From Candidatus Omnitrophota bacterium (GTDB lineage Bacteria > Omnitrophota > Gorgyraeia > 2-02-FULL-51-18): a stretch of DNA of 64,000 nucleotides. Position 1 is the first letter of the stretch; every line of letters begins with the position of its first letter. The stretch covers positions 3,743-67,742 of the forward strand of contig JACQQX010000054.1 in assembly GCA_016206805.1 (NCBI GenBank). The letters are read 5' to 3'. Shown piece by piece: positions 2,236 to 47,908 of this stretch. The notes under the pieces were generated by a model that saw nothing but the letters and a program-made list of their open reading frames with translations, did no database searches and was not told where the DNA came from. The translations under genes and the position numbers were made by a program.

Positions 2236-4584
<2,349 letters not shown>

Positions 4585-9350: not shown

Positions 9351-11294
9351 TCACTGGGGTTTCATTAACATATCGACGGCAGTGGCCGACACTTCTTCGG
9401 TTGAAATCGCTTTCAGACACTCGAAGTTGATCGTGCAGCGATGCGCTAGACACGTCACGCAGCCGACATCCTTTTGAATAATTCGGTGTCCGGCGCCCAG
9501 CGGTTTCCATCGCGCGGCGCTTAAACCCGCCGCATTGCGCCCAAAAAGAGTCAGAACCGGCGTACCCACCGCCGCCGCCACATGCACGGGACCGGAGTCA
9601 TTGGAGATCAGGAGCCGGCAGCTTTTAAGAAAAATAGTCAGCTCTCGTAAGCTCAAACGACCCGTCAAATCCACCACGCCGTCACCGAGCCGGCTAGACA
9701 AAGCCTTCCCCAACTCCATTTCTTCTTTTCCGCCGATAAGTGCGATTGGTAGACCAAGCTTTTCTTTTAATTGGCGCGCCAACTCCGCGTACCGCTCCTG
9801 GGGCCAGCGCTTGGAAGGACAGCTCGCCCCCGGATGCAAAGCGATCATGCCACCGGATTTTGGTTTTTGAATGTCATAGGCCGTCAGCGGGATCTCAAAT
9901 TTCTTATCGGGTGAGGACTGGACTCCAAATGCCCGGACAACATCGAGGGTGTATTCGGATTCATGGCGCTTTCCCTCATGCCGCCTATCCGCCGCCCGAT
10001 GCGTCAATAAAAACGGCAAACGAGAATCAAACCCTACGCGGTACGGGATTCCGGCCAAGGCCGGTAAAAGATGAGAGCGCGTGCTGGGATGCAGAATAAA
10101 AACCACGTCAAAATTCCGCCGGCGGATTTCCTTGAGAAATCGCCAGTAGCCCAAAAGCGACCGATGCCTGCCCCCTTTTTCGTAACGATAAGGGATGACT
10201 TCATCCAAAAGCGGGTGCCCCTGCAACAAGTCCTGAGTGTAAGAACGAGTCATCAGCGACAGGTGCGCGTTAGGAAATTGTTCTTTCACGGCCTCCACCG
10301 CCGGAAGCGACAACGCCAAGTCCCCGATCCGGTCCAGCCGGATAAAAAGAACTCGGAGACCACCTGAACTTTTCCATTCATGGCCCAGGAGACGCCTGGC
10401 CTGCTCATAAACTTCCAGCGGCAAAAGCTCGATCATGCATTCGTGATGATAACGGCACTGGGCCTTTTCGCAAGGCGCGCAAAAAAGCGGCTTTCTCAAA
10501 GCAATGCTATGACCGGACCGCGGACCATACTTGCGGGGATCCGTCGGACCAAATAATGCCAACGTCGGAATATCCATCGCGTCGGCAATATGAAGCGGCG
10601 CGCTGTCATTGGTCACCACCAAAGAAGCGGCGCGAATCACGGATTTTAATTCCTCAAAACTTGTCTTGCCGCATAGATCCAGCGCCGCGTGCTTCATAAG
10701 GCTTTTTACTTTTTCCGCGTCTGGGGCGTCCTGTTTGTCGCCGACAAGCGCGATATCACAATCCTCATTCACAGCCAGGCGGTCGAGAAGCTCAGCATAA
10801 TATTCCGCCGGCCATTTTTTGATGTCACTTTTAGAGCCGATGGCCGCGACAACCAAACGCTTTTCTCCGTCAAAAAGTTTGGAGGGCGCCACAGAAAGAA
10901 GCGGTCCATCCGGTAATGAAGTATCCGCGATGCCCTCTAGCGCCGCCAGATGCCGCCGCGCCCGGTGCATCGACTGTTTGCGGAATAAAAAATAATTGTT
11001 CCGGCGTTTTGCCCCACCCAAAAGTCCGATCAGCGAATGACGCAAGTCGATAATGGTGTCATAGCGCTCCTCGCGAATCTTCGCCAGAAAACCAATCTTG
11101 CCGATCAACGAAATTTTTTTATTGTAGGGAATGAGTTTTTGCACGCGCGGGTCGGACTCCAGAACCACAGCAGCGGAGGGACTAGCCACCGCATGGATCT
11201 GAACTTCAGGGGATTGACGCTTAAGCGCCTCAAAAACCGGCAGCGTCAGAACAACATCGCCTAAGTTGGAAAGTGTAACAACAAGGATTTTCAT
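9351..11294 (-). CDS. tandem double GT9 glycosyltransferase (two heptosyltransferase-like domains in one polypeptide)
   Basis: 647 aa. Two GT9 N-termini: MKILVVTLSNLGDVVLTLPVFEALK... and LRVLFIRLDRIGDLALSLPAVEAVK... Two NDSxPxH(I/V)A motifs. Each half ends in a Cys-rich motif. Confidence 0.85.
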   Translation of the reverse strand: MKILVVTLSNLGDVVLTLPVFEALKRQSPEVQIHAVASPSAAVVLESDPRVQKLIPYNKKISLIGKIGFLAKIREERYDTIIDLRHSLIGLLGGAKRRNNYFLFRKQSMHRARRHLAALEGIADTSLPDGPLLSVAPSKLFDGEKRLVVAAIGSKSDIKKWPAEYYAELLDRLAVNEDCDIALVGDKQDAPDAEKVKSLMKHAALDLCGKTSFEELKSVIRAASLVVTNDSAPLHIADAMDIPTLALFGPTDPRKYGPRSGHSIALRKPLFCAPCEKAQCRYHHECMIELLPLEVYEQARRLLGHEWKSSGGLRVLFIRLDRIGDLALSLPAVEAVKEQFPNAHLSLMTRSYTQDLLQGHPLLDEVIPYRYEKGGRHRSLLGYWRFLKEIRRRNFDVVFILHPSTRSHLLPALAGIPYRVGFDSRLPFLLTHRAADRRHEGKRHESEYTLDVVRAFGVQSSPDKKFEIPLTAYDIQKPKSGGMIALHPGASCPSKRWPQERYAELARQLKEKLGLPIALIGGKEEMELGKALSSRLGDGVVDLTGRLSLRELTIFLKSCRLLISNDSGPVHVAAAVGTPVLTLFGRNAAGLSAARWKPLGAGHRIIQKDVGCVTCLAHRCTINFECLKAISTEEVSATAVDMLMKPQ

Positions 11295-12307
11295 TTCACC
11301 GGCCTATTCAATAACTCCCTTGCGGCCCGCATCGCTTCTTCGGGCTTGATCCAGTCCATGCACACCCGATAATTGCAGGAGCGAAAATAGCAGGGAATTT
11401 CACAGCCTACGTCTTTTCTTAAAACAACAATAGGCCCGTTTCCAACCGGGCCGGTTTCCTCGTGGGAGGTTGGTCCGTACAAACCCACAATCGGTGTGGA
11501 CTGACTGGCCGCCAGATGAATGGGGCCTGAGTCGTTGGAAAGAATGAGTTTTACTTTTTTAAGGAGCGCTCCCAGCGTGTCCAAAGACGTTTCGCCGCAT
11601 AGTGACACGACGCGCGGATTCTCAAAATGAGAAACGATCGAGTCCACAAGCTTCGTCTCCCCTTTTGTGCCGCAGAGAATCACAGGACCCGGAAACTCCT
11701 GGAGAAATGATTCAATCCACTTTTTGAAATACTCCACCGGCCAGCGCTTGAGATCCCAATTCCCGCCCGCGTGCACAACAACGGCATTCTCCATACTCAT
11801 GACGCCATGTTCTGTCAGAAGTCCGGTCAGCTCATCAAAAGCCGCTGGGGCCGGATAAAAATCAAGCGCTCGGCCATCAGCCGGAATACCCAGCGCTTCC
11901 ACTAAATGCAGAAAATAATCAACCTTGTGCAACCGTTGCCGTGGAACCGGAACGGCCGTCGTCAACCACCTCGACGACACCGAATAACCGGCCCGATCGG
12001 GGATCCCGGCAAAGGCCGCCCACAATACTTTTGTTTTGGAACGGTGAAAAAAAATAGCTTTATCAAAATGCCTGGCTTTCAAAAGACCGATGAGCTTGAG
12101 CGATCCCCATGAAATAAAAGGGGCGCGATCATCATAAGGAAGGATTTCATCCAGATGCGGATTGTGACGCAAAACCGGCATCACGCGCTCCGGCGCCAGA
12201 CAAGCGATGTGCGCTTTGGGATGGGCTTTACGGATCGCGCGGATGGTCGGAGTCGAACAAAGGACATCCCCAACCCAGTTTTGGTTGACGATAAGAATCC
12301 GTGTCAT
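11291..12307 (-). CDS. GT9 glycosyltransferase (ADP-heptose:LPS heptosyltransferase-like)
   Basis: 338 aa. RILIVNQNWVGDVLCSTPTIRAIRK and SNDSGPIHLAA motifs. Confidence 0.85.
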   Translation of the reverse strand: MTRILIVNQNWVGDVLCSTPTIRAIRKAHPKAHIACLAPERVMPVLRHNPHLDEILPYDDRAPFISWGSLKLIGLLKARHFDKAIFFHRSKTKVLWAAFAGIPDRAGYSVSSRWLTTAVPVPRQRLHKVDYFLHLVEALGIPADGRALDFYPAPAAFDELTGLLTEHGVMSMENAVVVHAGGNWDLKRWPVEYFKKWIESFLQEFPGPVILCGTKGETKLVDSIVSHFENPRVVSLCGETSLDTLGALLKKVKLILSNDSGPIHLAASQSTPIVGLYGPTSHEETGPVGNGPIVVLRKDVGCEIPCYFRSCNYRVCMDWIKPEEAMRAARELLNRPVK

Positions 12308-13074
12308 GCGGTAGAGATTGGGTGGCGTTTTTTACCCAAATGATAAAGGCCTGTGGTTTTGGCCCAAAAACGGAAGAGATTGCCATCCCGGTCAGAAACT
12401 TTGATGCGATGCAGCGCGTAAAGATGATGACGCGTCTTGCCGTGATTGGTGGTGACCGCTCCCGCATAACCCGCTTTTTGAGCCACCTCCATCGCCTTTT
12501 GCGTCACGCCTCCCGCCGGATAACTCAAAAGCGTTATGGGATGTCCTAAAACGTCTTCCAGCCTCTTTTTGGAATCCATCATTTCTACGGCCGCTTGGGC
12601 CTCACTCACCTTCGGAAGAAAAGCGTGCGTCACCGTATGGCTTCCCACTTCCATGCCCGAATCATCCAATATTTTTAAATCTTCCTCGGAAAGCCATTGG
12701 TCTTTATTGATATTTTCGGTGATCATAAAAAACGCGGCCGGAAAACCCATTTTCTTCAGCACCGGAAAAGCGTTGGTAAAATTATCCAGATTGCCGTCAT
12801 CAAACGTGATGGCCACGGTTTTAGGATCTATCCGCTTGCCGGAACGCAAGCGCTCCACAATGTTCTCGACTCGCGTCACGCGATACCCATGGGTTTTTAA
12901 AAATTCCATTTGGCGGCGAAAATTTTCAGGCCTCACATTCAGCGAGGAAACCAGCGGCGCGTCGCTCACCTGGTGATACATCAAAATGGGGACTTCGTAA
13001 TTGGCCCGAAAAAAAAGATAAAACGCGGCCAATACCGCCGCCAGGACGAGAAATCTTTTTTTGATCCCCTTCAT
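12304..13074 (-). CDS. polysaccharide deacetylase (NodB homology domain), membrane-anchored
   Basis: 256 aa. N-terminal TM segment, ILMYHQV and TFDDGNLDNFTNAFPVLKKMGFPAAFF motifs. Confidence 0.85.
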   Translation of the reverse strand: MKGIKKRFLVLAAVLAAFYLFFRANYEVPILMYHQVSDAPLVSSLNVRPENFRRQMEFLKTHGYRVTRVENIVERLRSGKRIDPKTVAITFDDGNLDNFTNAFPVLKKMGFPAAFFMITENINKDQWLSEEDLKILDDSGMEVGSHTVTHAFLPKVSEAQAAVEMMDSKKRLEDVLGHPITLLSYPAGGVTQKAMEVAQKAGYAGAVTTNHGKTRHHLYALHRIKVSDRDGNLFRFWAKTTGLYHLGKKRHPISTA

Positions 13075-30341: not shown

Positions 30342-32015
30342 TTACGCCATATCCATAATTTCTTCGAACGATTTGCCGGACGGAATCATCGGGAACACAT
30401 TCTCCTCCGCTTCAACGATAAAATCCAACACACAAGGCCTGTCTTTGATAGTCAGCGACCAACGGATCGCCTCCTCCGCCTCTTGCTTGGTCTTCGCGTG
30501 ACGGCCCACGCCACCGTAGGCCTCAACAAGTTTCACAAAATCAGGATTGCCCTGCATGTCGGAGCTGGAATAGCGGTGGTTGTAAAACGCTTCCTGCCAC
30601 TGACGCACCATGCCCAGATAATTGTTGTTGATGATGGCGATTTTCACCGGCAGCTTGTGCACCACGGCCGTGGCCAGCTCTTGAATATTCATCTGGATCG
30701 AACCGTCGCCGGTGATGCACACCACGATTTTATCGGGAAACGCGAATTGCGCTCCAATGGCCGCGGGGAAACCGTAACCCATGGTTCCCAAACCGCCGCT
30801 GGTTAAAAACTGGTTGGGGCCGCTGACTTTATAATACTGCGCCGCCCACATCTGGTGCTGACCCACGTCGGTCGAAACGATGGCGTCACTGCCGTAAATC
30901 TCACAAAGCTTTTGGATGGCGTATTGGGGCCTCAACTGGCCGTCGTCGCGGTAACGCAGCGGGCTTTCCTTTTTCCATTTTTCGATTTCCGAAAGCCATT
31001 CTTTGGTGTCCGCGGGCTCAACGATTTTATTGAGCTCATGCAGGATCTGACGCACGTCCCCCACGATCGGCACGTCCACTTTCACGTTTTTGGAAATGGC
31101 CGAAGGGTCGACGTCCATGTGAATGATTTTCGCTTTCGGGGCAAATTTCTTCAAGTCCCCGGTCACGCGATCATCAAAGCGCGCGCCCACCGCGATCAAA
31201 AGATCGCATTCATGAACCGCGCGATTGGCGTAAACCGTCCCATGCATGCCCAGCATCCCCATAAACTGCGGATGCGTTCCCGAAACGCCGCCCAAACCCA
31301 TCAGCGTATTGGTGCAGGGCGCTTTGATTTTCTCGACAAACTTAATCAATTCCTTGGCGGCGCCTGAAATAATAACGCCACCGCCCGTGTACACTACCGG
31401 ACGTTTGGACTCGGCGATCATCTTGGCGGCTTTTTTAATCTGTCCCGGATGGCCTTCCAATACGGGTTTGAAACCACGGATATTCACCGTTTCCGGGTAC
31501 TGAAAATCAAATTGCGCAAGGCTGATGTCAGACGGGAAATCAATCAAAACCGGCCCGGGCCGGCCATGTGTGGCCAGCCAAAACGCTTCTTTCAAAACGC
31601 GCGGCAAGTCGTTGACGTCCTTCACGAGAAAATTATGCTTGGTGATCGGGCGGGTAATGCCCGTCACATCAGCTTCCTGAAAAGCATCATTGCCAATCAA
31701 AAAAGATTTGACCTGGCCGGTAACCACCACCAGCGGAATAGAATCCATATAGGCGTCGGCAATCCCGGTCACGGTATTGGTTGCGCCCGGTCCCGACGTC
31801 ACGACCACGACCCCCGGCTTGCCGGTAGAGCGCGCATAACCCTCGGCCATATGCACCGCACCCTGCTCGTGCCGAACCAAAATCACCTTAAACTTCGCGT
31901 CGTAAAGCGCGTCAAAAAGCGGCAAACACGCCCCACCCGGGAGCCCAAAAACATACTCCACGCCCTCTTTGGAAAACGCCTCCACCACCGCCTGAGCACC
32001 CGTTATTTTTGGCAT
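30342..32015 (-). CDS. ilvB: acetolactate synthase large (catalytic) subunit
   Basis: 557 aa. ThDP enzyme with GLGTMGYGFPAAIGA...GDGSIQMNIQEL. Confidence 0.95.
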   Translation of the reverse strand: MPKITGAQAVVEAFSKEGVEYVFGLPGGACLPLFDALYDAKFKVILVRHEQGAVHMAEGYARSTGKPGVVVVTSGPGATNTVTGIADAYMDSIPLVVVTGQVKSFLIGNDAFQEADVTGITRPITKHNFLVKDVNDLPRVLKEAFWLATHGRPGPVLIDFPSDISLAQFDFQYPETVNIRGFKPVLEGHPGQIKKAAKMIAESKRPVVYTGGGVIISGAAKELIKFVEKIKAPCTNTLMGLGGVSGTHPQFMGMLGMHGTVYANRAVHECDLLIAVGARFDDRVTGDLKKFAPKAKIIHMDVDPSAISKNVKVDVPIVGDVRQILHELNKIVEPADTKEWLSEIEKWKKESPLRYRDDGQLRPQYAIQKLCEIYGSDAIVSTDVGQHQMWAAQYYKVSGPNQFLTSGGLGTMGYGFPAAIGAQFAFPDKIVVCITGDGSIQMNIQELATAVVHKLPVKIAIINNNYLGMVRQWQEAFYNHRYSSSDMQGNPDFVKLVEAYGGVGRHAKTKQEAEEAIRWSLTIKDRPCVLDFIVEAEENVFPMIPSGKSFEEIMDMA

Positions 32016-32066: not shown

Positions 32067-32342
32067 TCACAAATTCTTCAAAAACCTGCGGATTTCATCG
32101 TGAGAACCTATAAGAAGAAACTCCACAACGTCCTCATTCTTGCGAAAAAGGATGCGTTCGTTCAATCCCGCGCGAATCTCCCAAATCTGGCGCCCCAACG
32201 GCGTTAGCCCAAGACCATGCGGAAGATGACCGGTCTCAAAAAAGGCTGTCGTCAAACGAATCGCTTTTTTAACCTGTTTTTTCTTGGCATCCGGGAGGGA
32301 GGCCAAACCTCGATCAAAGACAGAGGCTGAAAAATACCGCAT
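32067..32342 (-). CDS. RelE/ParE-superfamily-like toxin
   Basis: 91 aa, directly downstream (4-nt gap) of an AbrB-type antitoxin. Pattern ...LGRQIWEIRAGLNERILFRKNEDVVEFLLIGSHDE resembles RelE/ParE-fold toxins. Family assignment is tentative. Confidence 0.55.
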   Translation of the reverse strand: MRYFSASVFDRGLASLPDAKKKQVKKAIRLTTAFFETGHLPHGLGLTPLGRQIWEIRAGLNERILFRKNEDVVEFLLIGSHDEIRRFLKNL

Positions 32343-32346
32343 TTGT

Positions 32347-32619
32347 CTAGAGGCTGTCTAAATGACGAAGAAAACCCTCCGCCGAGGCAAACAGCTTTCC
32401 GTTTTTCTGATGAGCGATTTTCAGAAGCTTTTGCAGTTCTTCTTCGGTATAGGCTTCCGTCGGGCGAACTTCCATCTTCGCCAATCGAACCGACTCCGAT
32501 TTCTCATCCACCATAAATCCTACCGTATCCCCTTTTTCCAGTGCGCCAATGGTCATTCGCACCTTCTTGGGAAGGGTGATCTGGCCCTTTGGGCCCAGCG
32601 TTGCCGTGAACCAAGTCAT
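32347..32619 (-). CDS. AbrB/SpoVT-domain antitoxin
   Basis: MTWFTATLGPKGQITLPKKVRMTIGALEKGDTVGFMV is a swapped-hairpin motif. The start could be 32619 (ATGA overlap with the upstream small ORF) or 32637. Confidence 0.7.
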   Translation of the reverse strand: MTWFTATLGPKGQITLPKKVRMTIGALEKGDTVGFMVDEKSESVRLAKMEVRPTEAYTEEELQKLLKIAHQKNGKLFASAEGFLRHLDSL

Positions 32620-32840
32620 GGTTTTCCTCCTTTCCATGATTCCTTACTTAAAGGATACACGAAGCGATTCGGAATGTCAAATTCTAGATCAATAAACCAT
32701 TCCAGAGCGGGCTCTTTGACTTCCCGGATCCTGGGATTCCAAAGCATCCATTTTCCATTGACTTGCCGAACATCCCAATAGCCCTCAACCGAAGGGGTCA
32801 CCGAAGGGGCCGAAGGGGTCAAGTCTTTTCCTGACTGCAT
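32616..32840 (-). CDS. possible small ORF (74 aa) upstream of the AbrB/RelE-like pair; uncertain
   Basis: The stop overlaps the antitoxin ATG as ATGA. The N-terminal codons (MQSGKDLTP...) lie inside the 27-nt repeat motif, so the true start is unclear. No recognisable family. Confidence 0.25.
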   Translation of the reverse strand: MQSGKDLTPSAPSVTPSVEGYWDVRQVNGKWMLWNPRIREVKEPALEWFIDLEFDIPNRFVYPLSKESWKGGKP

Positions 32841-32877
32841 GCCGAAGGGGTCAAGTCTTTTCCTGACTGCATGTTTG
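32790..32877. repeat. CGAAGGGG(T/C) short repeats plus two tandem copies of the 27-nt motif GGGGTCAAGTCTTTTCCTGACTGCATG
   Basis: Motif copies at 32815..32841 and 32847..32873. CGAAGGGG units at about 32790, 32802, 32811 and 32843. Related to 7296..7384. Confidence 0.8.
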
Positions 32878-32963
32878 GTGAATCTTTGAATTTACCGGAC
32901 CAGGTCCGGTTTAATTCATGCCGTTGACAACACGTACGCTATGTGGTACGCCTTCTGTGTGTG

Positions 32964-32983
32964 TTTAGGTGTCAGTCCTCGAC
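32964..32983. repeat. left terminal inverted repeat of the RayT unit
   Basis: TTTAGGTGTCAGTCCTCGAC is the perfect reverse complement of 33912..33931. It overlaps the transposase stop codon. Confidence 0.9.
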
Positions 32984-33874
32984 TTTCGACATTTGGATAG
33001 CCTGCTCTAGCTTTGTCAGTCTATTTCTCAGATCTTTGTCGCGGAGAAGTCTCGGCTCCAGTCTTCTGACTGAGGCACTTACGGCCGAATGGGAAATATT
33101 GAAGCGCTCCCCTATTTGCCTTTGTGTCGCACGCGAGAACTTCCACATCGCATAAATGGCTGTTTTTTTATCATGGCCCTCAAGATGTTTGATCACGTCT
33201 TCGGGCGGTTTCCTAAACAACGCCTTTTTGCCTGCAAAGTCTTTGTTTTTCTTCGGTGAGATCTTGGCTTTCAACCGGTCCAGGAATGCTTCCGATCCGA
33301 TCATAAACCCTCCGATAGCTTCCTTGACGGGGTCTCGACCGGCTTCAAGGCCCTCCATCACAAACCGCCGATAAGCCGCCTTTGATTCAAAGCTTTCAAG
33401 CGTAAACTCCCTGTGAAGGTAGTCGGGCGCTTTTTCCTTAAGGTAGTGCTTCATGCTGGACCAGGGGTGATCTTCCGGTTTCTGGACCATCTTGGCTCTG
33501 ACAGGGTTTAAGTGGACATAGCGCGACAGCTCTAGAAAATAGTGGTCTTTGTCCACCAAGAGCGCCTTGTAGCGGCCCTGAAAGAGATGACCGTAGCGCT
33601 TGTGCCTGCGGTTAAAGCGAACGGTGTAAAGCCCGATAAGCCGTTTCATGGCATGAGAGAGATTGGAATCTTTTGTTTCAAGAAGCAAATGAAAGTGATT
33701 GGGCATCAAGCTGTAGGCATGAACAAGGAAATCAAATCGAGCGGCACAGTCGGCCAAGATCCCAAGGAACAGCTCATAGTCTACGTCGCTTCTGTAAATC
33801 TCCTTTCTCTCATTGCCGCGAGAGTAAACGTGATAAACGGCGTTTGGGAATTCCATTCTTAAGGGCCTTGCCAT
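32972..33874 (-). mobile_element. REP-associated tyrosine transposase-like (RayT / IS200-like Y1 HUH) gene with a C-terminal DnaA-C-like HTH
   Basis: 300 aa. AVYHVYSRGNERKEIY, HUH motif MPNHFHLLLE, catalytic Tyr region LSRYVHLNPVRAKM, and C-terminal AIYAMWKFSRATQRQIGERFNISHSAVSASVRRLE. Confidence 0.8.
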
Positions 33875-33911
33875 GCCGTGATGGTATCAAACGGGAAGAG
33901 GGTTGTCAAAT

Positions 33912-33931
33912 GTCGAGGACTGACACCTAAA
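33912..33931. repeat. right terminal inverted repeat of the RayT unit
   Basis: GTCGAGGACTGACACCTAAA. With CAAAT at 33907..33911 the repeat extends to 25 bp, allowing a 7-nt indel on the left side. Confidence 0.9.
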
Positions 33932-33971
33932 CTTTTCGGTAATTGCTCGATCAAGGTGTCTCCTAATCATG

Positions 33972-34008
33972 GTTACATTTTAACCACGCAATGGTTAAAA
34001 TGTAACCT
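33972..34008. repeat. perfect 16-bp stem / 5-nt loop hairpin
   Basis: GGTTACATTTTAACCA-CGCAA-TGGTTAAAATGTAACC, located between the RayT unit and the alr 3' remnant. Confidence 0.85.
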
Positions 34009-34030
34009 TCTATTTCCCTTCAGCTGCCTT

Positions 34031-34092
34031 TGTAAACCCTGAGATACGGCTACTGAGTCCGCACACGATTTCGTACGGAATGGCCCCCATCT
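34031..34092 (-). pseudogene. displaced remnant of an alanine racemase 3' end (direct repeat copy C)
   Basis: The core 34043..34090 is 44/48 identical to 37708..37755 inside alr. It encodes ..GAIPYEIVCGLSSRI.., compared with ..GTIPYEIVCGLSSRI.. in intact alr. Confidence 0.75.
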
Positions 34093-34234
34093 TTACAATG
34101 TGTCAATTTGAACTTTTAACTACTGATACTTTTACAAGTTCCGATCAAGAAACCGCTTGTAATTGATAAAATTGATGAGTATATTGTAATTCTGATTTAA
34201 ATTACAAATTTTTAAGTATTCAAAAATTCAAAAT

Positions 34235-36817
34235 ATGATGAAACCAACTGCCCATCTCAGAACTGTCGTTTCTTTTCTGGTGGGAGCCATGATCTTAGTG
34301 AGAGTGGCTTCCGTGCACGCGGCCGTACAGACGACCGCGGGCAATGAGACCATTAACGCAAGCGGCATCGCCGAGGGCGTGGTCTTCGGGGGCAATCACA
34401 CTCTGACCGTGTCTGCGTCCACCAACGTCGGAGCGACCAGCGGGTTGAGTTTCAATACCAATAATGTGGTTCGGGGTACCGTCACGTTCGAAGGCAGCTC
34501 GACTTTAAGCGGCGCCATCGGGCAGAACAGCGCCGCCAACGTCGTGAATACGGTCAATGTCGACGGGGCCAACGGCACAACCGTGACCATTGGAGGAACG
34601 GGGACCATTGAGGCGTTGGCGATCGATTTCGGAGGCGACGGCACGCTCGTGATAGGCGATGGTGGCGCTATCGATAATGGCAATTCGCTCGCCGGCGGCT
34701 CGGCGGTCAATGCCGACACGGCCGGACAAGGAGAGCTGCAGTTTGCCGGGAGCGCAGATGTTTACGGCGCCATAGGAACTACACGCGGTCTGCGATTGAT
34801 CACCATTAAAGCGGAGCAGGTTGTTATCCAGGAAGGCAATTCAGTCGTCGCCACCACGGTCAACTTTGCCGCTGACGGCGGCGAGCTCAGATTGGCCGCT
34901 ACCAATTCCAATGTCACCGCGAATTTTACCGCCACAACTTCAGGACAAGGAACGCTGATCCACAGTAACGGCGATCACACGATTACGGGAGAAATAGGGA
35001 CTTCCTCGGCGGCCATTAAACAGGTACAAGTTGGGACCGGCACCAGCGCTTTTAGCGGCAATATCTATGCGGGTGATCTCAATTTCAACGCGGACGGTAC
35101 CGCGACGATCGCCGCCTCAAATGTCGTCAGTGGAACGATCACGACGGATACCGACGGAACTGGCACGGTGACTTATGCCGGATCCACGACCGTCGGCGCG
35201 GCTATCGGTACCGCGGTCACTGCCGCTTTAAAGGCCATCAATGTCAACGGAGGAACGTTCAGTTCCGGTTTCAATATCTCCGCCGACACGATCACCATAT
35301 CCAATGACTCCACGCTTATGAAAATGACGGCTGCCACGACGATCACCGCGGCGACCGATTTTACTTTTGAGAACAGCACGACGGCGGGACTTGACCTCGG
35401 AAGTTATCTGCTGACCCTGACGGGCAAGATCGATCTTAACGACAGCAACGCGCTCGCGACGACCATCAACAGCGCCTCGGATTTCGGACGGATCACCGCT
35501 TCGGGAAACTCCACGTCGAACGCGGCCACGACCGTCAGTGTTACCGTGAACGGGTATGTCGCCAATGGCAGCACCTACAAGATCATCGACGGCGCCGCCG
35601 GTGGGACTGTCGCCGCTCCAACGACGGTGACTGACGACAGCGTCTTGACCTCTTTCACGGGCTCGGGATCCGCGGGTGATCTGACATTAACGGCCACGAC
35701 GACGGCATTACCGACCATCTCTACCGACACAAAGGGTGATAGGGCCGGAACCGCGCTTGACGCTGACGCGTTGTCAGGTACGATGAACTCGACCTATCTA
35801 GCCATTGGGCGCTTGGGTTCCGCGACCGCGGTAACCGAGGCATTGAAGCAGCTCAATCCCCAAAGTTCCGATGCCCCTGTACGCACGACCTTGCAGGTTG
35901 CAAGCGATATCGGCCGTATCGTTTTTGAAAGGCTCGCTTCGGATGGAGGTCTCTCAGGCATTTCATCGGGGGATGCATTTTCAGCGAAGTCGATCTGGGC
36001 AAAACTTGTGGGCGGTTATGCCGACCAGAACGCTAGAAAGGGCGAGGAAGGGTATTCCGCAATTTATGGAGGCGCAACCCTAGGTGTAGATGCCGAGATC
36101 GATGACGCGGACACACTCGGCCTGGCTTTCACCTACGCTCAAAGCGGGATCAATTATGACACGTCTGTCTTCGGAAATACTTTGATTGACGGCTATCAAT
36201 GGACCCTTTATCACGAACATGACTTCAGTGACCGCTGGCGTCTGTACAGTCTCATGGCGTTCGGCCTGAACCACTACGACGGAAGCCGCACAGCCAATAT
36301 CGGCTCGGACACCTATCGGGCGACGTTCGATCATTGGGGCCAGCAGTACACGGCTCAAACGGAGCTTGGGTATGATCTGAGCAGCGGGCCTGTGACCGTG
36401 ACTCCTCTGGCCTCGATCGGGTACACACACCTGACGCTTGGCGGCTATCGGGAGATCGGAGCGGGAGAGATCAGCCTTCAGGTAGACAGGCAACAGTACG
36501 ATACGGTCGAATCCGGATTGGGTCTGAAACTAACGCATCCGGCGAAAGCGGGAAGCAATCAGCCCTCCACCGATCTTCACGGGATGTGGTACTGGGACAT
36601 GGTTGGAGACAGGACCGATATCAGCTCAAATTTTTCGGGCGGCGCCACGTCATTCAAAACGCTGGGAGTCGAACCGGATCGACACCGATTTGTTGTCGGA
36701 GGACTGCTTAATTTTAGCTGCGGAAGCCATACCGATGTTTCCGTAGGATACGATGTGGAGTTTAAAGACAGATTCATCAGTCATAATGGGATGCTGAAAG
36801 TGCGGCATCAGTTCTGA
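34235..36817 (+). CDS. autotransporter (type Va) outer-membrane protein
   Basis: 860 aa and the only plus-strand gene. Signal peptide MMKPTAHLRTVVSFLVGAMILVRVASVHA. Cys-free T/G/A/N/S-rich passenger. C-terminal beta-barrel domain from about 35990 (SIWAKLVGGYADQN...) ending in the OMP-type terminal ...LKVRHQF. Confidence 0.8.
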   Translation: MMKPTAHLRTVVSFLVGAMILVRVASVHAAVQTTAGNETINASGIAEGVVFGGNHTLTVSASTNVGATSGLSFNTNNVVRGTVTFEGSSTLSGAIGQNSAANVVNTVNVDGANGTTVTIGGTGTIEALAIDFGGDGTLVIGDGGAIDNGNSLAGGSAVNADTAGQGELQFAGSADVYGAIGTTRGLRLITIKAEQVVIQEGNSVVATTVNFAADGGELRLAATNSNVTANFTATTSGQGTLIHSNGDHTITGEIGTSSAAIKQVQVGTGTSAFSGNIYAGDLNFNADGTATIAASNVVSGTITTDTDGTGTVTYAGSTTVGAAIGTAVTAALKAINVNGGTFSSGFNISADTITISNDSTLMKMTAATTITAATDFTFENSTTAGLDLGSYLLTLTGKIDLNDSNALATTINSASDFGRITASGNSTSNAATTVSVTVNGYVANGSTYKIIDGAAGGTVAAPTTVTDDSVLTSFTGSGSAGDLTLTATTTALPTISTDTKGDRAGTALDADALSGTMNSTYLAIGRLGSATAVTEALKQLNPQSSDAPVRTTLQVASDIGRIVFERLASDGGLSGISSGDAFSAKSIWAKLVGGYADQNARKGEEGYSAIYGGATLGVDAEIDDADTLGLAFTYAQSGINYDTSVFGNTLIDGYQWTLYHEHDFSDRWRLYSLMAFGLNHYDGSRTANIGSDTYRATFDHWGQQYTAQTELGYDLSSGPVTVTPLASIGYTHLTLGGYREIGAGEISLQVDRQQYDTVESGLGLKLTHPAKAGSNQPSTDLHGMWYWDMVGDRTDISSNFSGGATSFKTLGVEPDRHRFVVGGLLNFSCGSHTDVSVGYDVEFKDRFISHNGMLKVRHQF

Positions 36818-37620
36818 TCCACCCAGCCGGACCAATGATCGGCGTTGATCTCTATGATCTTCGCGGTCGGAGGACTGCCCTCCTTCTGAACGAAATTTCG
36901 AGCGATGAAAGGCGGGACAATCTTATCTTTTCGGCCTACCAGGTGTTCTTGGGGGATCGCGGCGACTTTGGCCGCGACGTCCATGGGATCCAAAGAACCG
37001 CTCAAAGGACTCACGCGATGATGGCGGTTCACGGCCTCCGGATCAAGATTTCCGGCAATCGTCCTTAAAAAAACCGCGTCGTGCCGTCTGGCGGCCAAAA
37101 GGACCACCACCGCTCCTCCTCCCGAGTAGCCCGTAAGGCGCACTTTTTGAGCGCCGGCCTGTTGTTTCAACTCATTCACCGCGCGGTCCATCGCCGCGAT
37201 CACTTCTTCGGAGAATCGTTTTTCCGCCCAATAGACCGAGTCGCAAGGAGGTTCGACCGGCGCATACTGGCCGGGCCGCGCCAAATAAGCTACGTTGTCG
37301 GACGGATCTTTGGAAGCCAGCTCTAGGACGAGCGCGTGCCTGGGCGTCGGGTCATCCGAGAGCCTGTTTCGCGAACGCCAGGCCAGTCCGTCCCCTTCTA
37401 TATAGACATGAAGCGTCTCTCCGGGTCTTTTGAAGCGTGTGTATGAGGTGAGGACGAACGGATCCGCGGAGATCAGCGCTTTTTGAAAACCGCCGTTTCT
37501 GGCGAGGCTGTCCGCATCCAAGCGCGCGTTCAAAGAGGAAGAGAAAGTGGCGCATCCAGAGGAGATGCCCAGGAGAAGAATCACGGTCGCGCAGAGAGTC
37601 GGTTTTTTTAAGAGCATCAC
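36808..37620 (-). CDS. alpha/beta-hydrolase-fold lipoprotein (serine hydrolase)
   Basis: 270 aa. Lipobox LLLGISSGC, nucleophile elbow GYSGGG. Its 3' end overlaps the autotransporter 3' end by 10 nt (convergent). Confidence 0.65.
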   Translation of the reverse strand: MMLLKKPTLCATVILLLGISSGCATFSSSLNARLDADSLARNGGFQKALISADPFVLTSYTRFKRPGETLHVYIEGDGLAWRSRNRLSDDPTPRHALVLELASKDPSDNVAYLARPGQYAPVEPPCDSVYWAEKRFSEEVIAAMDRAVNELKQQAGAQKVRLTGYSGGGAVVVLLAARRHDAVFLRTIAGNLDPEAVNRHHRVSPLSGSLDPMDVAAKVAAIPQEHLVGRKDKIVPPFIARNFVQKEGSPPTAKIIEINADHWSGWVDQN

Positions 37621-37623
37621 GGA

Positions 37624-38847
37624 TTACTCTAAGCTATTGTAAACCCGATGGCAACCTGCGCGTGAGCGCTTGGACTCATTACGAGTAAACCGCTTGTAGA
37701 TTCTGGGGATACGGCTACTGAGTCCGCATACGATTTCGTAAGGAATGGTCCCTATCCAGCGGGCGAGGTCTTCGGCGAGGACCCTGATTGCGCCGTCCTG
37801 ACCGATGAGCGTCACCTCATCCCAGCGTTTCGCCGATGGGAGTGCCCCCACGTCCACCAGCGTCTGGTCCATGGTGACGCGGCCCACGACGGGACAGGCC
37901 CTCCCGCGCACGATGACGTGGCTTTTATTTGAAAGCGCCCACCGGTAGCCGTGGCTGTAACCCACGGGCAGGGTGGCGATGCGCGTCGGGCGCGACACGC
38001 GATGGGTGGCGCCATAACTTAAGACCCGCCCCTTCCCCGCGTCCTTCAAAAAAGCGATTCGCGTCTTGAGACTCAAAATGGGGCGAATGCCACGCGGCAG
38101 TTTTTCATCCGACGGCCTCAGGCCGTACAAAATAATGCCTGGTCTCACGAGATTGAGGTGCGATTTTTTGAAACGAATCACCCCGAGGCTGTTGGCCGCG
38201 TGCCGGTAGCGGGCCCTGACACCCCGGGCTTCCAGGCGCGCGATCACCTTTTCGAAACAATCCAGCTGATCGAGTGTGTGAATTTTTTCCGAGTGATCGG
38301 CGCGGGAAAAGTGCGTGTAAAGCCCTTCCACGGTGATGTTTTCCATCCGGGCGATTTCCAAAACAAAGTCCTCGGCATGCTCATGCCACACGCCGAGCCG
38401 GCCCATGCCGGTGTCGATTTTGACATGCACGGGGAATCGGCCGTTTTCGGGCGCGGCCTCCTCAAAAAACCGGGCGTCTTCCGCTGACGACACCGTGGGC
38501 GTGATCCGGTGGCGGATAAAAAGGCGGACCTGACTCCGGTGACAACTGCCCAGAACCAGAATCCGCGCCGCAGGAAGGGCTTTTCGGAGAGCCATCGCCT
38601 CATCGAGTGTCGCCACACCAAAAAAATTCACTCCACCCTTCTGCAAGGCCTTGGCCACGGGAACCATTCCGTGGCCGTAAGCGTCCGCTTTCACGATGGC
38701 CAGCACTTCTGTTTTTTGATTTTTTAAAATACGGCGGACGACTTTTAAATTGTTGATCAGAGCATCTAGGTGCACTTCGGCCCATAGGAGCGGAGTTGGG
38801 GTCGACGTTGGGGTCTGACCCCCGACCAATGGCCTCTTGGCGCTCAT
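37624..38847 (-). CDS. alr: alanine racemase
   Basis: AIVKADAYGHG PLP-lysine motif and the Alr C-terminal domain. I prefer the ATG at 38847 (ATGA overlap with the tsaB stop). It has an unusual N-terminal PLVGGQTPTSTPTP extension and a roughly 23-aa C-terminal extension after RIYK. Confidence 0.88.
   Translation of the reverse strand: MSAKRPLVGGQTPTSTPTPLLWAEVHLDALINNLKVVRRILKNQKTEVLAIVKADAYGHGMVPVAKALQKGGVNFFGVATLDEAMALRKALPAARILVLGSCHRSQVRLFIRHRITPTVSSAEDARFFEEAAPENGRFPVHVKIDTGMGRLGVWHEHAEDFVLEIARMENITVEGLYTHFSRADHSEKIHTLDQLDCFEKVIARLEARGVRARYRHAANSLGVIRFKKSHLNLVRPGIILYGLRPSDEKLPRGIRPILSLKTRIAFLKDAGKGRVLSYGATHRVSRPTRIATLPVGYSHGYRWALSNKSHVIVRGRACPVVGRVTMDQTLVDVGALPSAKRWDEVTLIGQDGAIRVLAEDLARWIGTIPYEIVCGLSSRIPRIYKRFTRNESKRSRAGCHRVYNSLE
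37695..37756. repeat. direct repeat copy D (inside the alr 3' region)
   Basis: Pairs with 34031..34092. The two copies bracket the hydrolase and autotransporter genes. Confidence 0.8.
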
Positions 38848-38875
38848 CGCTGTTTCCCCAGGGGGGTCAGACCCC
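38798..38875. repeat. GGGGTC cluster with the inverted pair GGGGTCTGACCCC / GGGGTCAGACCCC across the tsaB-alr junction
   Basis: GGGGTC at 38798. GGGGTCTGACCCC at 38810..38822. GGGGTCAGACCCC at 38863..38875. The last two are reverse complements of each other and each is itself palindromic. Confidence 0.8.
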
Positions 38876-45880: not shown

Positions 45881-46514
45881 GGAGAATATTCATCACTTTC
45901 GCGTGCACTTGGTCAATCGTATCGGATTCCTGCAGCGGAATGCGCCTAAAACGACCGGGCTCACGGCGGGCAATGGCCAGAAACCCGTTCCGAACTTTCT
46001 GATGGAAGTAAACGCTCTTTTTTTCCATGCGGTCCAGCGCCCTTTTGCCCCGCAGACGGCCCAAGCCATCGGCGACCGGCAGATCAAAAAAAAGACTCAT
46101 GGTGGGCCGCACGAAACCGGTCGTCATTTTCCCCACTTGCTCAATCCATTTTACGTTCACGCCGGCGCCATACCCCTGATAAGCCACCGTCGCGTCCAGC
46201 CACCGGTCACAAAGAACGATTTTTCCCTTCTCAAGCTCGGGGCGGATGATTTCTTCCACAATCTGCGCGCGGCTGGCCATGTAGAGCAGCGTTTCGCAAA
46301 GCGGGGTGATAGACGCGTTCTTGCGATCCAAGAGCACATCCCGGATCTTTTCGCCAAGCTTTGTGCCGCCCGGCTCCCGCGTCAAAAACACGGACCGGCC
46401 CTCTCTCTTCAAAGCATCATAAAGAATCTGGATCTGAGTCGACTTCCCGCTTCCTTCTCCGCCTTCAAACGTAATCAACATCCCTTTTTTCTTGGGATTC
46501 AAAGTTTTCTCCAT
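45867..46514 (-). CDS. tmk: thymidylate kinase
   Basis: ITFEGGEGSGKSTQ P-loop and DRW/LID motifs. The start may be the internal ATG at 46481 (MLITFEG...). Confidence 0.9.
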   Translation of the reverse strand: MEKTLNPKKKGMLITFEGGEGSGKSTQIQILYDALKREGRSVFLTREPGGTKLGEKIRDVLLDRKNASITPLCETLLYMASRAQIVEEIIRPELEKGKIVLCDRWLDATVAYQGYGAGVNVKWIEQVGKMTTGFVRPTMSLFFDLPVADGLGRLRGKRALDRMEKKSVYFHQKVRNGFLAIARREPGRFRRIPLQESDTIDQVHAKVMNILRDIL

Positions 46515-47908
46515 TCAGTTTTACCACCAGGCAAGTCCGTCAATAGGATGCCTTTTGCCAGTAACTTTTGACGAATTTTATCTGCCAGTTTAAAATTTTT
46601 ATTCCTTTTCGCTTCATCTCGTTGATAAATACCCTCTTCAATTTCTTGTTTAAGCTCCTTATCCACCACTCTCAGCTTTGCCGGATCCATATCCAAGCAA
46701 AGAACTTTCTCAAAAAATAAACGAATTTTTCTGGCCGTGTCCAGAAAGAGATCCGCCTGTTTATGCTGGATAAGTCTGGCATATGCCAAATCAATCATGT
46801 TATGAAAAACAGCTAAAACCTGCGGGGTATTAAAATCATTGTCCATTGCTCTTTCAATATCTGAGCCAAATGAAACCAACTCCGTTTTTGTTTTACTGGT
46901 CAATTGGGAGGCTTTATCAAAAAAATTCAAAAAACGCTCTCTAATGGCCCGCGCCATTTGCATCTTCTCTTCCGAGTAATCTAACGGCATAGAATAATGA
47001 GTGAGCAAGAAAAGCATCTTTAGATCTTCAATTGCATGAGGGTTTTTATCTTCAAGCGTTTTTAGCGTTATAAAGTTTTTTAATGATTTGGACATTTTCT
47101 GGCCATTGACGGTAATCAGTCCGTGATGGACCCAGTAGCTGACCGGATTTGTACCCGTTAACCCTTCAAATTGCGCTATCTCATTTTCATGATGCGGGAA
47201 GATTAAATCCAAACCGCCGCCGTGAATATCAAAAACGTCCCCAAGATATTTTTGGCTCATCGCTGAACATTCAATATGCCAGCCAGGCCGTCCTTTACTC
47301 CAAGGACTTTCCCAAAAGGGCTCTCCCTCTTTGGATTTTTTCCAAAGAGCGAAATCCAGAGGATTCCGTTTCTTTTCATTCTTTTCAATACGGACATTTT
47401 TTAGGATGGCATCCGTATCCTGATGGGACAATTTACCGTACCCGGGAAATTTTTTGACATCATAATAGACATCGCCATCGCTGAGATAAGCGATATTCCT
47501 GTCAATCAGTCCTGATATAAACTTTATCATATCGGGAATGTGCTTGGTTGCCCAGGGCTCATGATCAGGGTCTCTAATACCAAATTTGATTAAATTCTCG
47601 TGATAAAGACTATAAAATCTGGTGGAAACATTTTTTGTTTCTAGGCTGAGATCTCCGTTGGACGATCGTGCTTTCTCAATAATTTTGTCATCAATATCAG
47701 TCACATTTCGAACAAATGTAACTTCATATTTATGACTGCTCTTCGCCAGATAGTTGCGCATTACTTCAAAAACATAGACGGATCGAAGATGACCAATATG
47801 AGGTTCGTCATAAACGGTAGGCCCGCAAACATACATCCGAACCTGCCCTTTTTTTAGAGGCTCAAATACTTCCTTTTGACGTTTAAGAGAATTATAGATT
47901 TCAAGCAT
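46499..47908 (-). CDS. cysS: cysteine--tRNA ligase
   Basis: 469 aa. CGPTVYDEPHIGH and KMSKSLKN motifs. The start ATG shares one base with the brnA-2 TAA stop (TAATG). Confidence 0.95.
   Translation of the reverse strand: MLEIYNSLKRQKEVFEPLKKGQVRMYVCGPTVYDEPHIGHLRSVYVFEVMRNYLAKSSHKYEVTFVRNVTDIDDKIIEKARSSNGDLSLETKNVSTRFYSLYHENLIKFGIRDPDHEPWATKHIPDMIKFISGLIDRNIAYLSDGDVYYDVKKFPGYGKLSHQDTDAILKNVRIEKNEKKRNPLDFALWKKSKEGEPFWESPWSKGRPGWHIECSAMSQKYLGDVFDIHGGGLDLIFPHHENEIAQFEGLTGTNPVSYWVHHGLITVNGQKMSKSLKNFITLKTLEDKNPHAIEDLKMLFLLTHYSMPLDYSEEKMQMARAIRERFLNFFDKASQLTSKTKTELVSFGSDIERAMDNDFNTPQVLAVFHNMIDLAYARLIQHKQADLFLDTARKIRLFFEKVLCLDMDPAKLRVVDKELKQEIEEGIYQRDEAKRNKNFKLADKIRQKLLAKGILLTDLPGGKTEWRKL

Follow-up and report, generated by a model that had tools for sequence, protein, structure and literature searches.

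The alanine racemase gene alr of a Candidatus Omnitrophota bacterium, located in a 64,000-nt stretch of contig JACQQX010000054.1 (assembly GCA_016206805.1, positions 3,743 to 67,742 of the forward strand; hereafter the 64-kb window), is followed from its very last codons by a 5.0-kb block of accessory DNA that is missing from the nearest relative. A diverged second copy of the alr 3' end lies within this block, on the far side of a cassette encoding a lipoprotein hydrolase and an autotransporter; the same cassette occurs in other samples beside unrelated DNA, and the alr reading frame now runs into the leader of the hydrolase gene. With some reserve, we lean towards a junction between alr and ilvB that has been hit repeatedly, in which the second copy (the alr' relic) is a 3' end that was displaced or duplicated through illegitimate recombination or one-sided homologous recombination; the cassette would have entered in an event of its own, at the terminal Tyr-Lys (YK) codons, with a 12-nt duplication. 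The block (32687-37693) would thus be layered, lineage-specific and of multi-event origin, wedged between the last conserved alr codons and the sequence found directly after alr in the nearest relative.

The position of the insertion is defined by comparison with other alr loci, namely L001-L003 (Alr 55-60% identical), L081 (69%, the closest), L004 and further alr loci, and involves the following features of the window.

37624..38847, minus strand: alr, with its start taken at MSAKRPL; the conserved family domain ends ...RIPRIYK (about 37693); Pfam Ala_racemase_N/C.
32687..32962, minus strand: repeat-rich spacer, the terminal portion of the DNA that L081 lacks; it contains a small palindrome, CCCCTTCGG repeats and a 31-nt tandem duplication.
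32067..32686, minus strand: downstream flank, consisting of a TTGACA promoter (32680-32652), an AbrB/MazE-like antitoxin and a ParE-like toxin, with ilvB (30342-32015) next.

The order thiL-tsaE-tsaB-alr-ilvB-ilvN-ilvC-leuA is kept in L001, L002, L003 and L081, and in all four Alr ends 1-5 residues past YK. In L001, L002 and L003 ilvB comes directly after alr; in L081 a TTGACA promoter adjoins the alr stop and leads on to an AbrB/MazE-like antitoxin, a ParE-like toxin and ilvB. By blastn, L081 2373-4002 corresponds to window 39326-37694, and L081 4007-6893 to window 32686-29794. Since these alignments adjoin at 4002/4007 in L081, the window carries 5.0 kb (32687-37693) relative to it, positioned at the last alr codons; the L081-like state has the alr YK codons joined to TAGAATTTGACA. 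The extra block contains the hydrolase-autotransporter cassette, the alr' relic, a hairpin, a RayT-like gene and the repeat-rich spacer. Relatives' synteny and the repeat described below thus bear out the initial annotation, a reading of the sequence alone, in placing accessory DNA at the very 3' end of alr with a diverged second alr end on its far side. Its discrete 3.6-kb islet is not supported by the comparison, as the block measured against the nearest genome is 5.0 kb long and includes the relic, the hairpin and the RayT-like cassette.

The alr/ilvB junction has received other DNA as well. The toxin-antitoxin (TA) module (window 32067-32686; L081 4010-4626; 84-88% amino-acid identity) stands between alr and ilvB only in these two loci, and because it is missing in L001-L003 it represents an earlier insertion at the same spot. 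L004 carries a different 1.6-kb insertion between alr and ilvB (10995-12455), encoding a multi-pass membrane protein of ~430-486 amino acids, and its Alr end is likewise altered, to RIPRLVTAPGT followed by the stop. The L004 insertion independently shows that the alr/ilvB junction is insertion-prone.

The two copies of the alr 3' end are arranged as follows.

37692..37756, minus strand: proximal repeat copy, the in-frame last 21 codons of conserved Alr (GTIPYEIVCGLSSRIPRIYK), contiguous with alr; the L081 alignment ends at 37694.
34021..34091, minus strand: alr' relic, the diverged last ~21 alr codons with a 1-nt frameshift, identified by repeat search and reading.

A repeat search of the 64-kb window reports a direct repeat of 49 nt (34043-34091 / 37708-37756) that is 45/49 identical (92%). 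It is the repeat annotated earlier as 44/48 identical (34043..34090 / 37708..37755), one base longer, and both copies have the same orientation, as had been stated. The exact 21-mer GATACGGCTACTGAGTCCGCA within the repeat occurs at two sites only in 64 kb (0 expected, from 100 shuffles). With one 1-nt indel, the similarity reaches ~64 nt (34028-34091 versus 37692-37756), spanning 20 codons with 51/59 identities when codon-aligned, in agreement with the weaker similarity previously noted beyond the core. The four differences within the 49-nt core comprise two synonymous third-position changes (CCT/CCG and GTA/GTG), ACC/GCC (Thr/Ala) and ATA/ATG; over the longer alignment, 5/8 substitutions fall at third codon positions and one is Ile/Val, a third-position bias that is not statistically significant.

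The copies resemble each other far more than they resemble any relative. Specifically, they share 51/59 positions, versus <=42/60 for either copy to any of 61 relatives; the relic alone reaches <=41/59 to any of these 61 and 51/59 to the proximal copy, and both carry the lineage-specific GLSS motif. This mutual closeness argues that the second copy derives from the same narrow lineage and not from distant foreign DNA; of the earlier proposal, the synonymous nature of two of the four core differences therefore stands, but an origin of one copy in distant foreign DNA is not favoured. Assignment of which copy is native was attempted and set aside because the relatives are too distant (<=70% identical). 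Moreover, a motif scan of loci L001-L091 finds a second alr-derived C-terminal copy in 0/80 related alr loci and exactly one Alr C-terminal motif in 63 loci, the sole extra match, in L033, being an unrelated minus-strand peptide. Neither a family-wide internal repeat of alr, a possibility that the initial annotation had raised against itself, nor a recurrent type of insertion therefore accounts for the duplication.

The DNA between the two copies and its junctions comprise the features below.

37687..37698, no strand assigned: proximal 12-nt repeat, AAACCGCTTGTA; on the minus strand TACAAGCGGTTT, corresponding to the alr YK codons plus 6 nt.
34150..34161, no strand assigned: distal 12-nt repeat, an exact copy of AAACCGCTTGTA.
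34092..34149, minus strand: 58-nt segment between the 12-nt repeat and the relic, defined by direct reading.
34162..34234, plus strand: AT-rich region preceding the autotransporter; a promoter-like site spans 34157-34185.
34235..36817, plus strand: type Va autotransporter of 860 amino acids (PF03797), convergent with the hydrolase gene with a 10-nt overlap.
36808..37620, minus strand: lipoprotein alpha/beta-hydrolase with a GYSGG nucleophile elbow and sub-threshold Pfam hydrolase matches.
37624..37691, minus strand: Alr tail of 22 codons (RFTRNESKRSRAGCHRVYNSLE, then the stop), made up of junction sequence and the hydrolase leader/promoter, beyond the Alr family models.

The cassette probably extends over 34162-37686, which places the relic outside it. 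A match of at least 12 nt between the junction regions 34092-34234 and 37620-37707 arises in 1/5000 shuffles. Deleting 34162-37686, with one repeat copy left, yields an Alr of normal length that ends ...RIYKRFLDRNL with its stop at 34133-34135, and in this cassette-less layout the relic starts 41 nt after the alr end; the implied junction is GAATCTACAAGCGGTTTCTTGATC. The AT-rich region 34162-34234 is probably the right-hand end of the cassette, its boundary being set by the 12-nt repeat. The segment 34092-34149 possibly represents the displaced native alr tail (RFLDRNL and the stop) plus 41 nt of old downstream sequence with AAATTGACA; its similarity to the far junction GGTTTATTGATCTAGAATTTG is marginal only. 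Together, this arrangement suggests that the relic was already beside alr before the cassette arrived, and the cassette would then have entered in a separate event, either microhomology-based or of the target-duplication type. The segment flanked by the 12-nt direct repeat, 34162-37686, was found to contain neither a transposase nor convincing terminal inverted repeats.

The Alr tail records this insertion. TIGR00492 matches the protein over its full length (355 bits versus a cut-off of 168; residues 22-384 of 407), and both this model and Pfam Ala_racemase_C stop at ...RIY(K), leaving 22 further residues outside the family; the atypical tail of about 23 amino acids reported after RIYK is thus genuine, at 22 residues. 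The proximal alr copy has no stop codon, and its frame continues for 22 codons through the junction and the hydrolase leader, with a promoter-like site at 37654-37626 inside the tail region. In four other contigs (L085-L088), the DNA homologous to the cassette begins at window 37660, and window 37660-37620 is homologous to the 45-nt spacer that leads from the upstream gene to the hydrolase gene. Because this homology begins within the tail, its last dozen codons (AGCHRVYNSLE and the stop) are the hydrolase's own leader, and the remaining tail is junction sequence. Insertion of the cassette at the YK codons would have removed the stop of alr, and the racemase would therefore carry the 22-residue read-through tail. 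The relic and the hydrolase leader also have a 10-mer in common (GGGTTTACAA), which was considered and judged to be chance or promoter-like.

The contigs L085-L088, which come from four other samples, also show the cassette in a second genomic context. Their hydrolase is 86-87% identical at the amino-acid level and their DNA 86-89% identical to that of the window; upstream lies a divergent, unrelated gene without a Pfam match, separated by the 45-nt spacer. The convergent autotransporter is present in L085-L087 and missing in L088, and no alr-like end is attached to the cassette in any of the four.

These observations bear directly on the integrative element that the initial annotation had proposed to target and reconstitute the alr 3' end. 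Such a site-specific islet would be a 3.6-kb element carrying a mimic of the alr 3' end, recombining within the 21-nt core and displacing the native end, with its integrase since lost or supplied in trans; we regard it as improbable. The att-like direct repeats that it calls for are present (49 nt, 92%, with a 21-nt exact core and imperfect flanks) in the same orientation, the distal copy has a canonical stop and the proximal copy is followed by foreign sequence, alr directly precedes core genes in relatives, and the e14/icd system of Escherichia coli has the same architecture, including a 163-bp pseudo-icd' (PMC6379469). However, Pfam finds only the hydrolase and the autotransporter between the repeats and no integrase or recombinase domain there, as had already been annotated for an integrase; the rest of the 5.0-kb block likewise has no integrase, and no plasmid or phage similarity is found. 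The cassette exists elsewhere without an alr-like end, its homology stopping at 37660-37690 and not at 37756. In the supposedly element-borne copy no stop codon is present: the frame stays open for 22 codons, across the cassette junction and through the hydrolase promoter and leader, which is not a reconstituting design and disposes of a clean restoration of alr. The nested 12-nt repeat is left unexplained, and a similar insertion or second alr end occurs in 0/80 alr loci. An element that integrates into and rebuilds alr is accordingly hard to maintain, having neither an integrase, nor a self-terminating replacement end, nor an att-bearing counterpart elsewhere. A variant in which the 49-nt repeat is the att pair of an integrase-less, trans-mobilised islet targeting the alr 3' end, served by a recombinase encoded elsewhere or by the RayT-like HUH protein acting on the hairpin, appears very improbable; were it true, Omnitrophota would move surface-protein cassettes by a new mechanism.

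The relic itself is informative about how the second copy arose. On the minus strand it reads MGAIPYEIVCGLSSRI..., and its uncorrected frame ends MGAIPYEIVCGLSSRISGFTKAAEGK before a stop; after a 1-nt correction it gives a canonical Alr end, ...SSRI(L)RVYKGS, whose stop occupies 34021-34023. Its specific 31-mer is CGTATCTCAGGGTTTACAAAGGCAGCTGAAG. The frameshift lies in the conserved PR codons, and the Thr-to-Ala change falls at a conserved site. Located on the alr strand downstream of the inserted DNA, the relic has the form of a retained 3' fragment in the same orientation. It is presumably non-functional, and its substitution pattern fits a once-functional allele now decaying, although judged from sequence this pattern would fit an allelic origin and an in-situ duplication alike. 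Under the displacement that we prefer, the relic would have arisen through one-sided homologous plus illegitimate recombination, of the type called homology-facilitated illegitimate recombination (HFIR), between two close alr alleles, or through an equivalent illegitimate event, and not from an integrase acting on att sites.

Local copying of the last ~64 nt of alr, by slippage, template switching or a staggered break, with subsequent decay and later arrival of the cassette between the copies, is the other origin to be weighed, and we consider it possible yet unlikely. The greater mutual similarity of the copies would follow from it, as would the distal frameshift and the conserved-Thr change, which look like relaxed constraint, and the copies would have been only ~70 nt apart before the cassette insertion implied by the 12-nt repeat. 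However, the sequences 3' of the two copies are unrelated by local alignment, so there was no simple tandem duplication of the alr end together with its downstream sequence. The substitutions also lean towards synonymous or conservative changes, and the distal YKGS end with its stop is canonical but different, resembling a once-functional allele and not a decayed ...YKRF.

Immediately past the relic lie a hairpin and the RayT-like unit.

33971..34007, no strand assigned: hairpin with a perfect 16-bp inverted repeat and a 5-nt loop, directly past the relic; single copy in the window.
32963..33932, minus strand: RayT-like cassette (gene 32972-33874) encoding a Y1 HUH transposase with a helix-turn-helix (HTH), bounded by perfect 21-nt inverted repeats.

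The hairpin gives a terminator-like match on the plus strand. The inverted repeats of the RayT-like unit (32963-32983 / 33912-33932) are 21 nt long and perfect, one of them overlapping the last codons of the gene. The encoded protein matches Pfam Y1_Tnp with 49.1 bits (cut-off 23; E=7.8e-13) and the NCBIfam model REP_Tyr_transpos (NF047646) with 72.7, under its cut-off of 80, so the curated RAYT threshold is not reached. The nearest recombinase-like gene outside the distal repeat, as pointed out in the initial annotation, does therefore carry a Y1_Tnp domain, but it scores under the RAYT cut-off and is enclosed, as a separate unit, by inverted repeats of its own. The same type of repeat accompanies a homologue with 60% identity that lies in unrelated surroundings (L092, 3954-4901), where neither an alr fragment nor a hairpin occurs, and flanking inverted repeats are found in most of 71 RayT-like homologue loci. 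The unit is self-contained, and no mechanistic tie to the alr duplication is seen.

It is accordingly hardly plausible that this neighbouring Y1 transposase-like protein acted through the hairpin and so captured DNA, or inserted it, at the end of alr. Its appeal lies in proximity, the RayT-like gene being 96 nt from the relic with a perfect hairpin between them; against this, the unit is delimited by its own repeats here, in L092 and in most of the 71 loci, further copies of the hairpin or the inverted repeat are not found in 64 kb, and the protein falls below the NCBIfam RAYT cut-off. Moreover, IS200/IS605-type Y1 enzymes are not known to make or need duplications of 49-64 nt, which also counts against such an event.

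Several observations concern the RayT-like genes and the spacer in their own right. Genes combining Y1_Tnp with a C-terminal HTH (window, L092 and L093-L171) are almost always bracketed by 15-31-nt inverted repeats, with one arm often over the stop codon and the other beside the -35 box of the promoter; the window and the 60%-identical homologue have arms of conserved sequence. Downstream of the unit, at 32800-32875 on the minus strand, the 31-nt tandem duplication (CATGCAGTCAGGAAAAGACTTGACCCCTTCGG, twice) is followed by three to four CCCCTTCGG repeats. Two further candidates were not relied on, as their local alignments are marginal (p about 0.05-0.2 by shuffling): an additional alr-end relic at the far junction (32687-32720), and common "target" repeats (CTTGATCG.../TTGACA) after each inserted block. 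At the opposite end of alr, the palindrome GGGGTC(T/A)GACCCC occurs at 38810-38822 and 38863-38875, flanking the start codon (38847); these are its sole two copies in 64 kb (0.02 expected), and they encode extra TsaB C-terminal and Alr N-terminal residues missing in relatives. The two copies may form a REPIN-like doublet, or else fold into a stem-loop around the alr ribosome-binding site.

Base composition gives no clear signal of foreign origin for the DNA between the copies, contrary to what the islet proposal had led one to look for. GC content at third codon positions (GC3) is 0.646 in the hydrolase gene and 0.643 in the autotransporter gene, compared with a window mean of 0.606 ± 0.055, and by amino-acid-normalised codon usage the autotransporter ranks 33rd and the hydrolase 14th of 51 genes. 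The AT-rich region before the autotransporter falls within the lowest-GC 140-nt window of the 64 kb (34101-34240; 0.236), as the initial annotation had sensed, but it is not unlike everything else, since other intergenic spacers reach 0.26-0.30. No tRNA, tmRNA or Rfam family is detected in the 64-kb window. Elsewhere in the window, the cysteinyl-tRNA synthetase gene (46499-47908, minus strand; PF01406, E=1e-115) has a GC content of 0.395 and a GC3 of 0.383 (z = -4, against the mean of 0.606) and is the top outlier in synonymous codon usage; this gene was probably acquired horizontally and would be the real compositional anomaly of the window.

Several points weigh against repeated insertion with a displaced alr end, and they lower the confidence with which we propose it. 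Empty sites exist at the family level (L001-L003 and L081), but no same-species empty site or intermediate was found, the best match in the Alr search after the 100% identical one being only 69% identical; both the succession of the events and their mechanism are therefore inferred. The 90% Alr cluster consists of the NCBI and Logan versions of one allele. The 24-mer predicted for the empty site has 0 matches in JGI metagenomes, so the cassette boundaries stay a model, and the right-hand end of the cassette is unconfirmed elsewhere, since L085 and L086 stop at window 34937; the only other close autotransporter, P0242 (59% identical), was tried for this end and rejected as too diverged and differently arranged. 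No donor-type locus for the displacement was found by the Alr searches, the motif scan or the JGI 24-mer search. Microhomology at the 34091/34092 joint amounts to ~3 nt (GAT), and a 21-nt identical core within a 49-nt imperfect repeat also has the look of attL/attR. The tetranucleotide profile of the cassette is the most deviant in the window (z=3.8); this deviation reflects the Gly/Thr/Ala-rich amino-acid composition of the autotransporter passenger, and, with GC3 and amino-acid-normalised codon usage both ordinary, it was not accepted as evidence of foreign origin. Finally, 32838-34255 was not recovered in independent assemblies, and exact-match searches turned up no record for the RayT-like protein, tried from two alternative starts, or for the hydrolase started at GTG.

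This gap, together with the fact that the contig was assembled from a metagenome, gives what substance there is to the idea of a chimera of two strains joined near the repeat; the per-run Logan contigs found here break off either at the 31-nt tandem repeat or at Nextera adapter sequence. Logan contigs found via the antitoxin break at this tandem repeat; separately, the end of L082 (5511-5527) is CTGTCTCTTATACACAT, an adapter remnant, so this contig end is technical and not a strain breakpoint. The junction from alr through the hydrolase to the autotransporter is nonetheless reproduced at 100% identity in three independent per-run Logan assemblies, which argues against a chimera. A mis-join at the 21-mer would have deleted the cassette instead of placing it between the copies, and 128 nt of unique sequence lead from the autotransporter promoter to the relic with no common k-mer at the join. 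An assembly artefact is thus extremely improbable. The proteins here are identical to NCBI records MBI4432830-32, which belong to a 73-kb contig of a metagenome-assembled genome, and the Alr product is 100% identical to MBI4432832.1.

Between the repeats lie an alpha/beta-hydrolase lipoprotein and an 860-residue autotransporter, as Pfam and the translations confirm for the gene content given in the initial annotation, and the autotransporter is indeed the sole convincing plus-strand gene of the window; nearly all other genes of the window are on the minus strand. The autotransporter beta-domain (PF03797) occupies residues 587-840 across the full-length profile (E=1.4e-44), and the translation shows a hydrophobic N-terminus or signal peptide and a Gly/Thr/Ala-rich passenger, as expected of type Va. 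It is 91% identical to its counterparts in L085 and L086 and 59% to that in L089. For the hydrolase, no family is found in NCBIfam, Pfam matches stay sub-threshold and a PDB sequence search is uninformative, yet a protein search returns >3600 homologues. The two families adjoin in three orientations: convergent (window 34235-37620 and L085-L087), head-to-head (L089, 628-4127, beside an rve_3 transposase fragment) and tandem (L173, 819-4202, and L174). In L172, as in L088, the autotransporter is missing beside the hydrolase homologue. Adjacency in three orientations suggests that hydrolase and autotransporter form a recurrent functional pair that relocates, the partnership being proposed from adjacency alone.

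Collectively, these results portray the alr/ilvB boundary, a core-gene junction of an uncultured Omnitrophota lineage, as a place where accessory DNA has landed more than once (a TA module, a RayT-like unit, a surface-protein cassette), and they indicate that accessory insertions can rewrite the C-terminus of an essential enzyme. The pairing of hydrolase and autotransporter is a usable functional lead and the most useful by-product of the analysis. No mobile element of a new class is revealed; the locus adds one more case to processes already known, and it cautions that not every gene-end duplication is an att site.

Among known systems, the RAYTs and REPtrons share with the window unit a Y1_Tnp gene flanked by perfect inverted repeats, as in its homologues; unlike them, the unit scores under the curated model, has a C-terminal HTH extension and shows no dispersed REP copies in 64 kb, and the comparison gives no sign that the RayT-like protein acted on alr. 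The autotransporter agrees with type Va in its C-terminal PF03797 beta-barrel, signal peptide and Gly/Thr/Ala-rich passenger; unlike the usual type Va systems with a partner gene, its partner belongs to an uncharacterised lipoprotein alpha/beta-hydrolase family without a Pfam or NCBIfam assignment.

The insertion of e14 or phage 21 into E. coli icd takes place at the 3' end of the gene and leaves a pseudo-icd' of 163 bp (PMC6379469). As at alr, a direct duplication of the gene 3' end brackets the inserted DNA, and most differences between the copies are silent or conservative (PMC6379469). In contrast, e14 encodes an integrase and brings along an entire replacement end, stop codon included; neither is present here, where the proximal copy reads into a promoter and the cassette exists elsewhere without an alr-like end.

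The closest parallel to the preferred displacement is offered by HFIR, a type of displacement that leaves orphan 3' fragments and is described for type VI secretion system (T6SS) and Rhs loci (PMC5361080). The present locus differs from HFIR arrays in that the gene concerned is a housekeeping racemase and not a polymorphic toxin, a single relic remains, microhomology at the joint is minimal, and the donor arrangement and crossover point are hypothetical. It resembles the arrays of Rhs, CdiA and T6SS effector genes in that incoming DNA stands beside a conserved gene whose old 3' end is displaced in the same orientation, a short homologous fragment survives, no integrase is involved, and repeated events build up layered arrays (PMC5361080).

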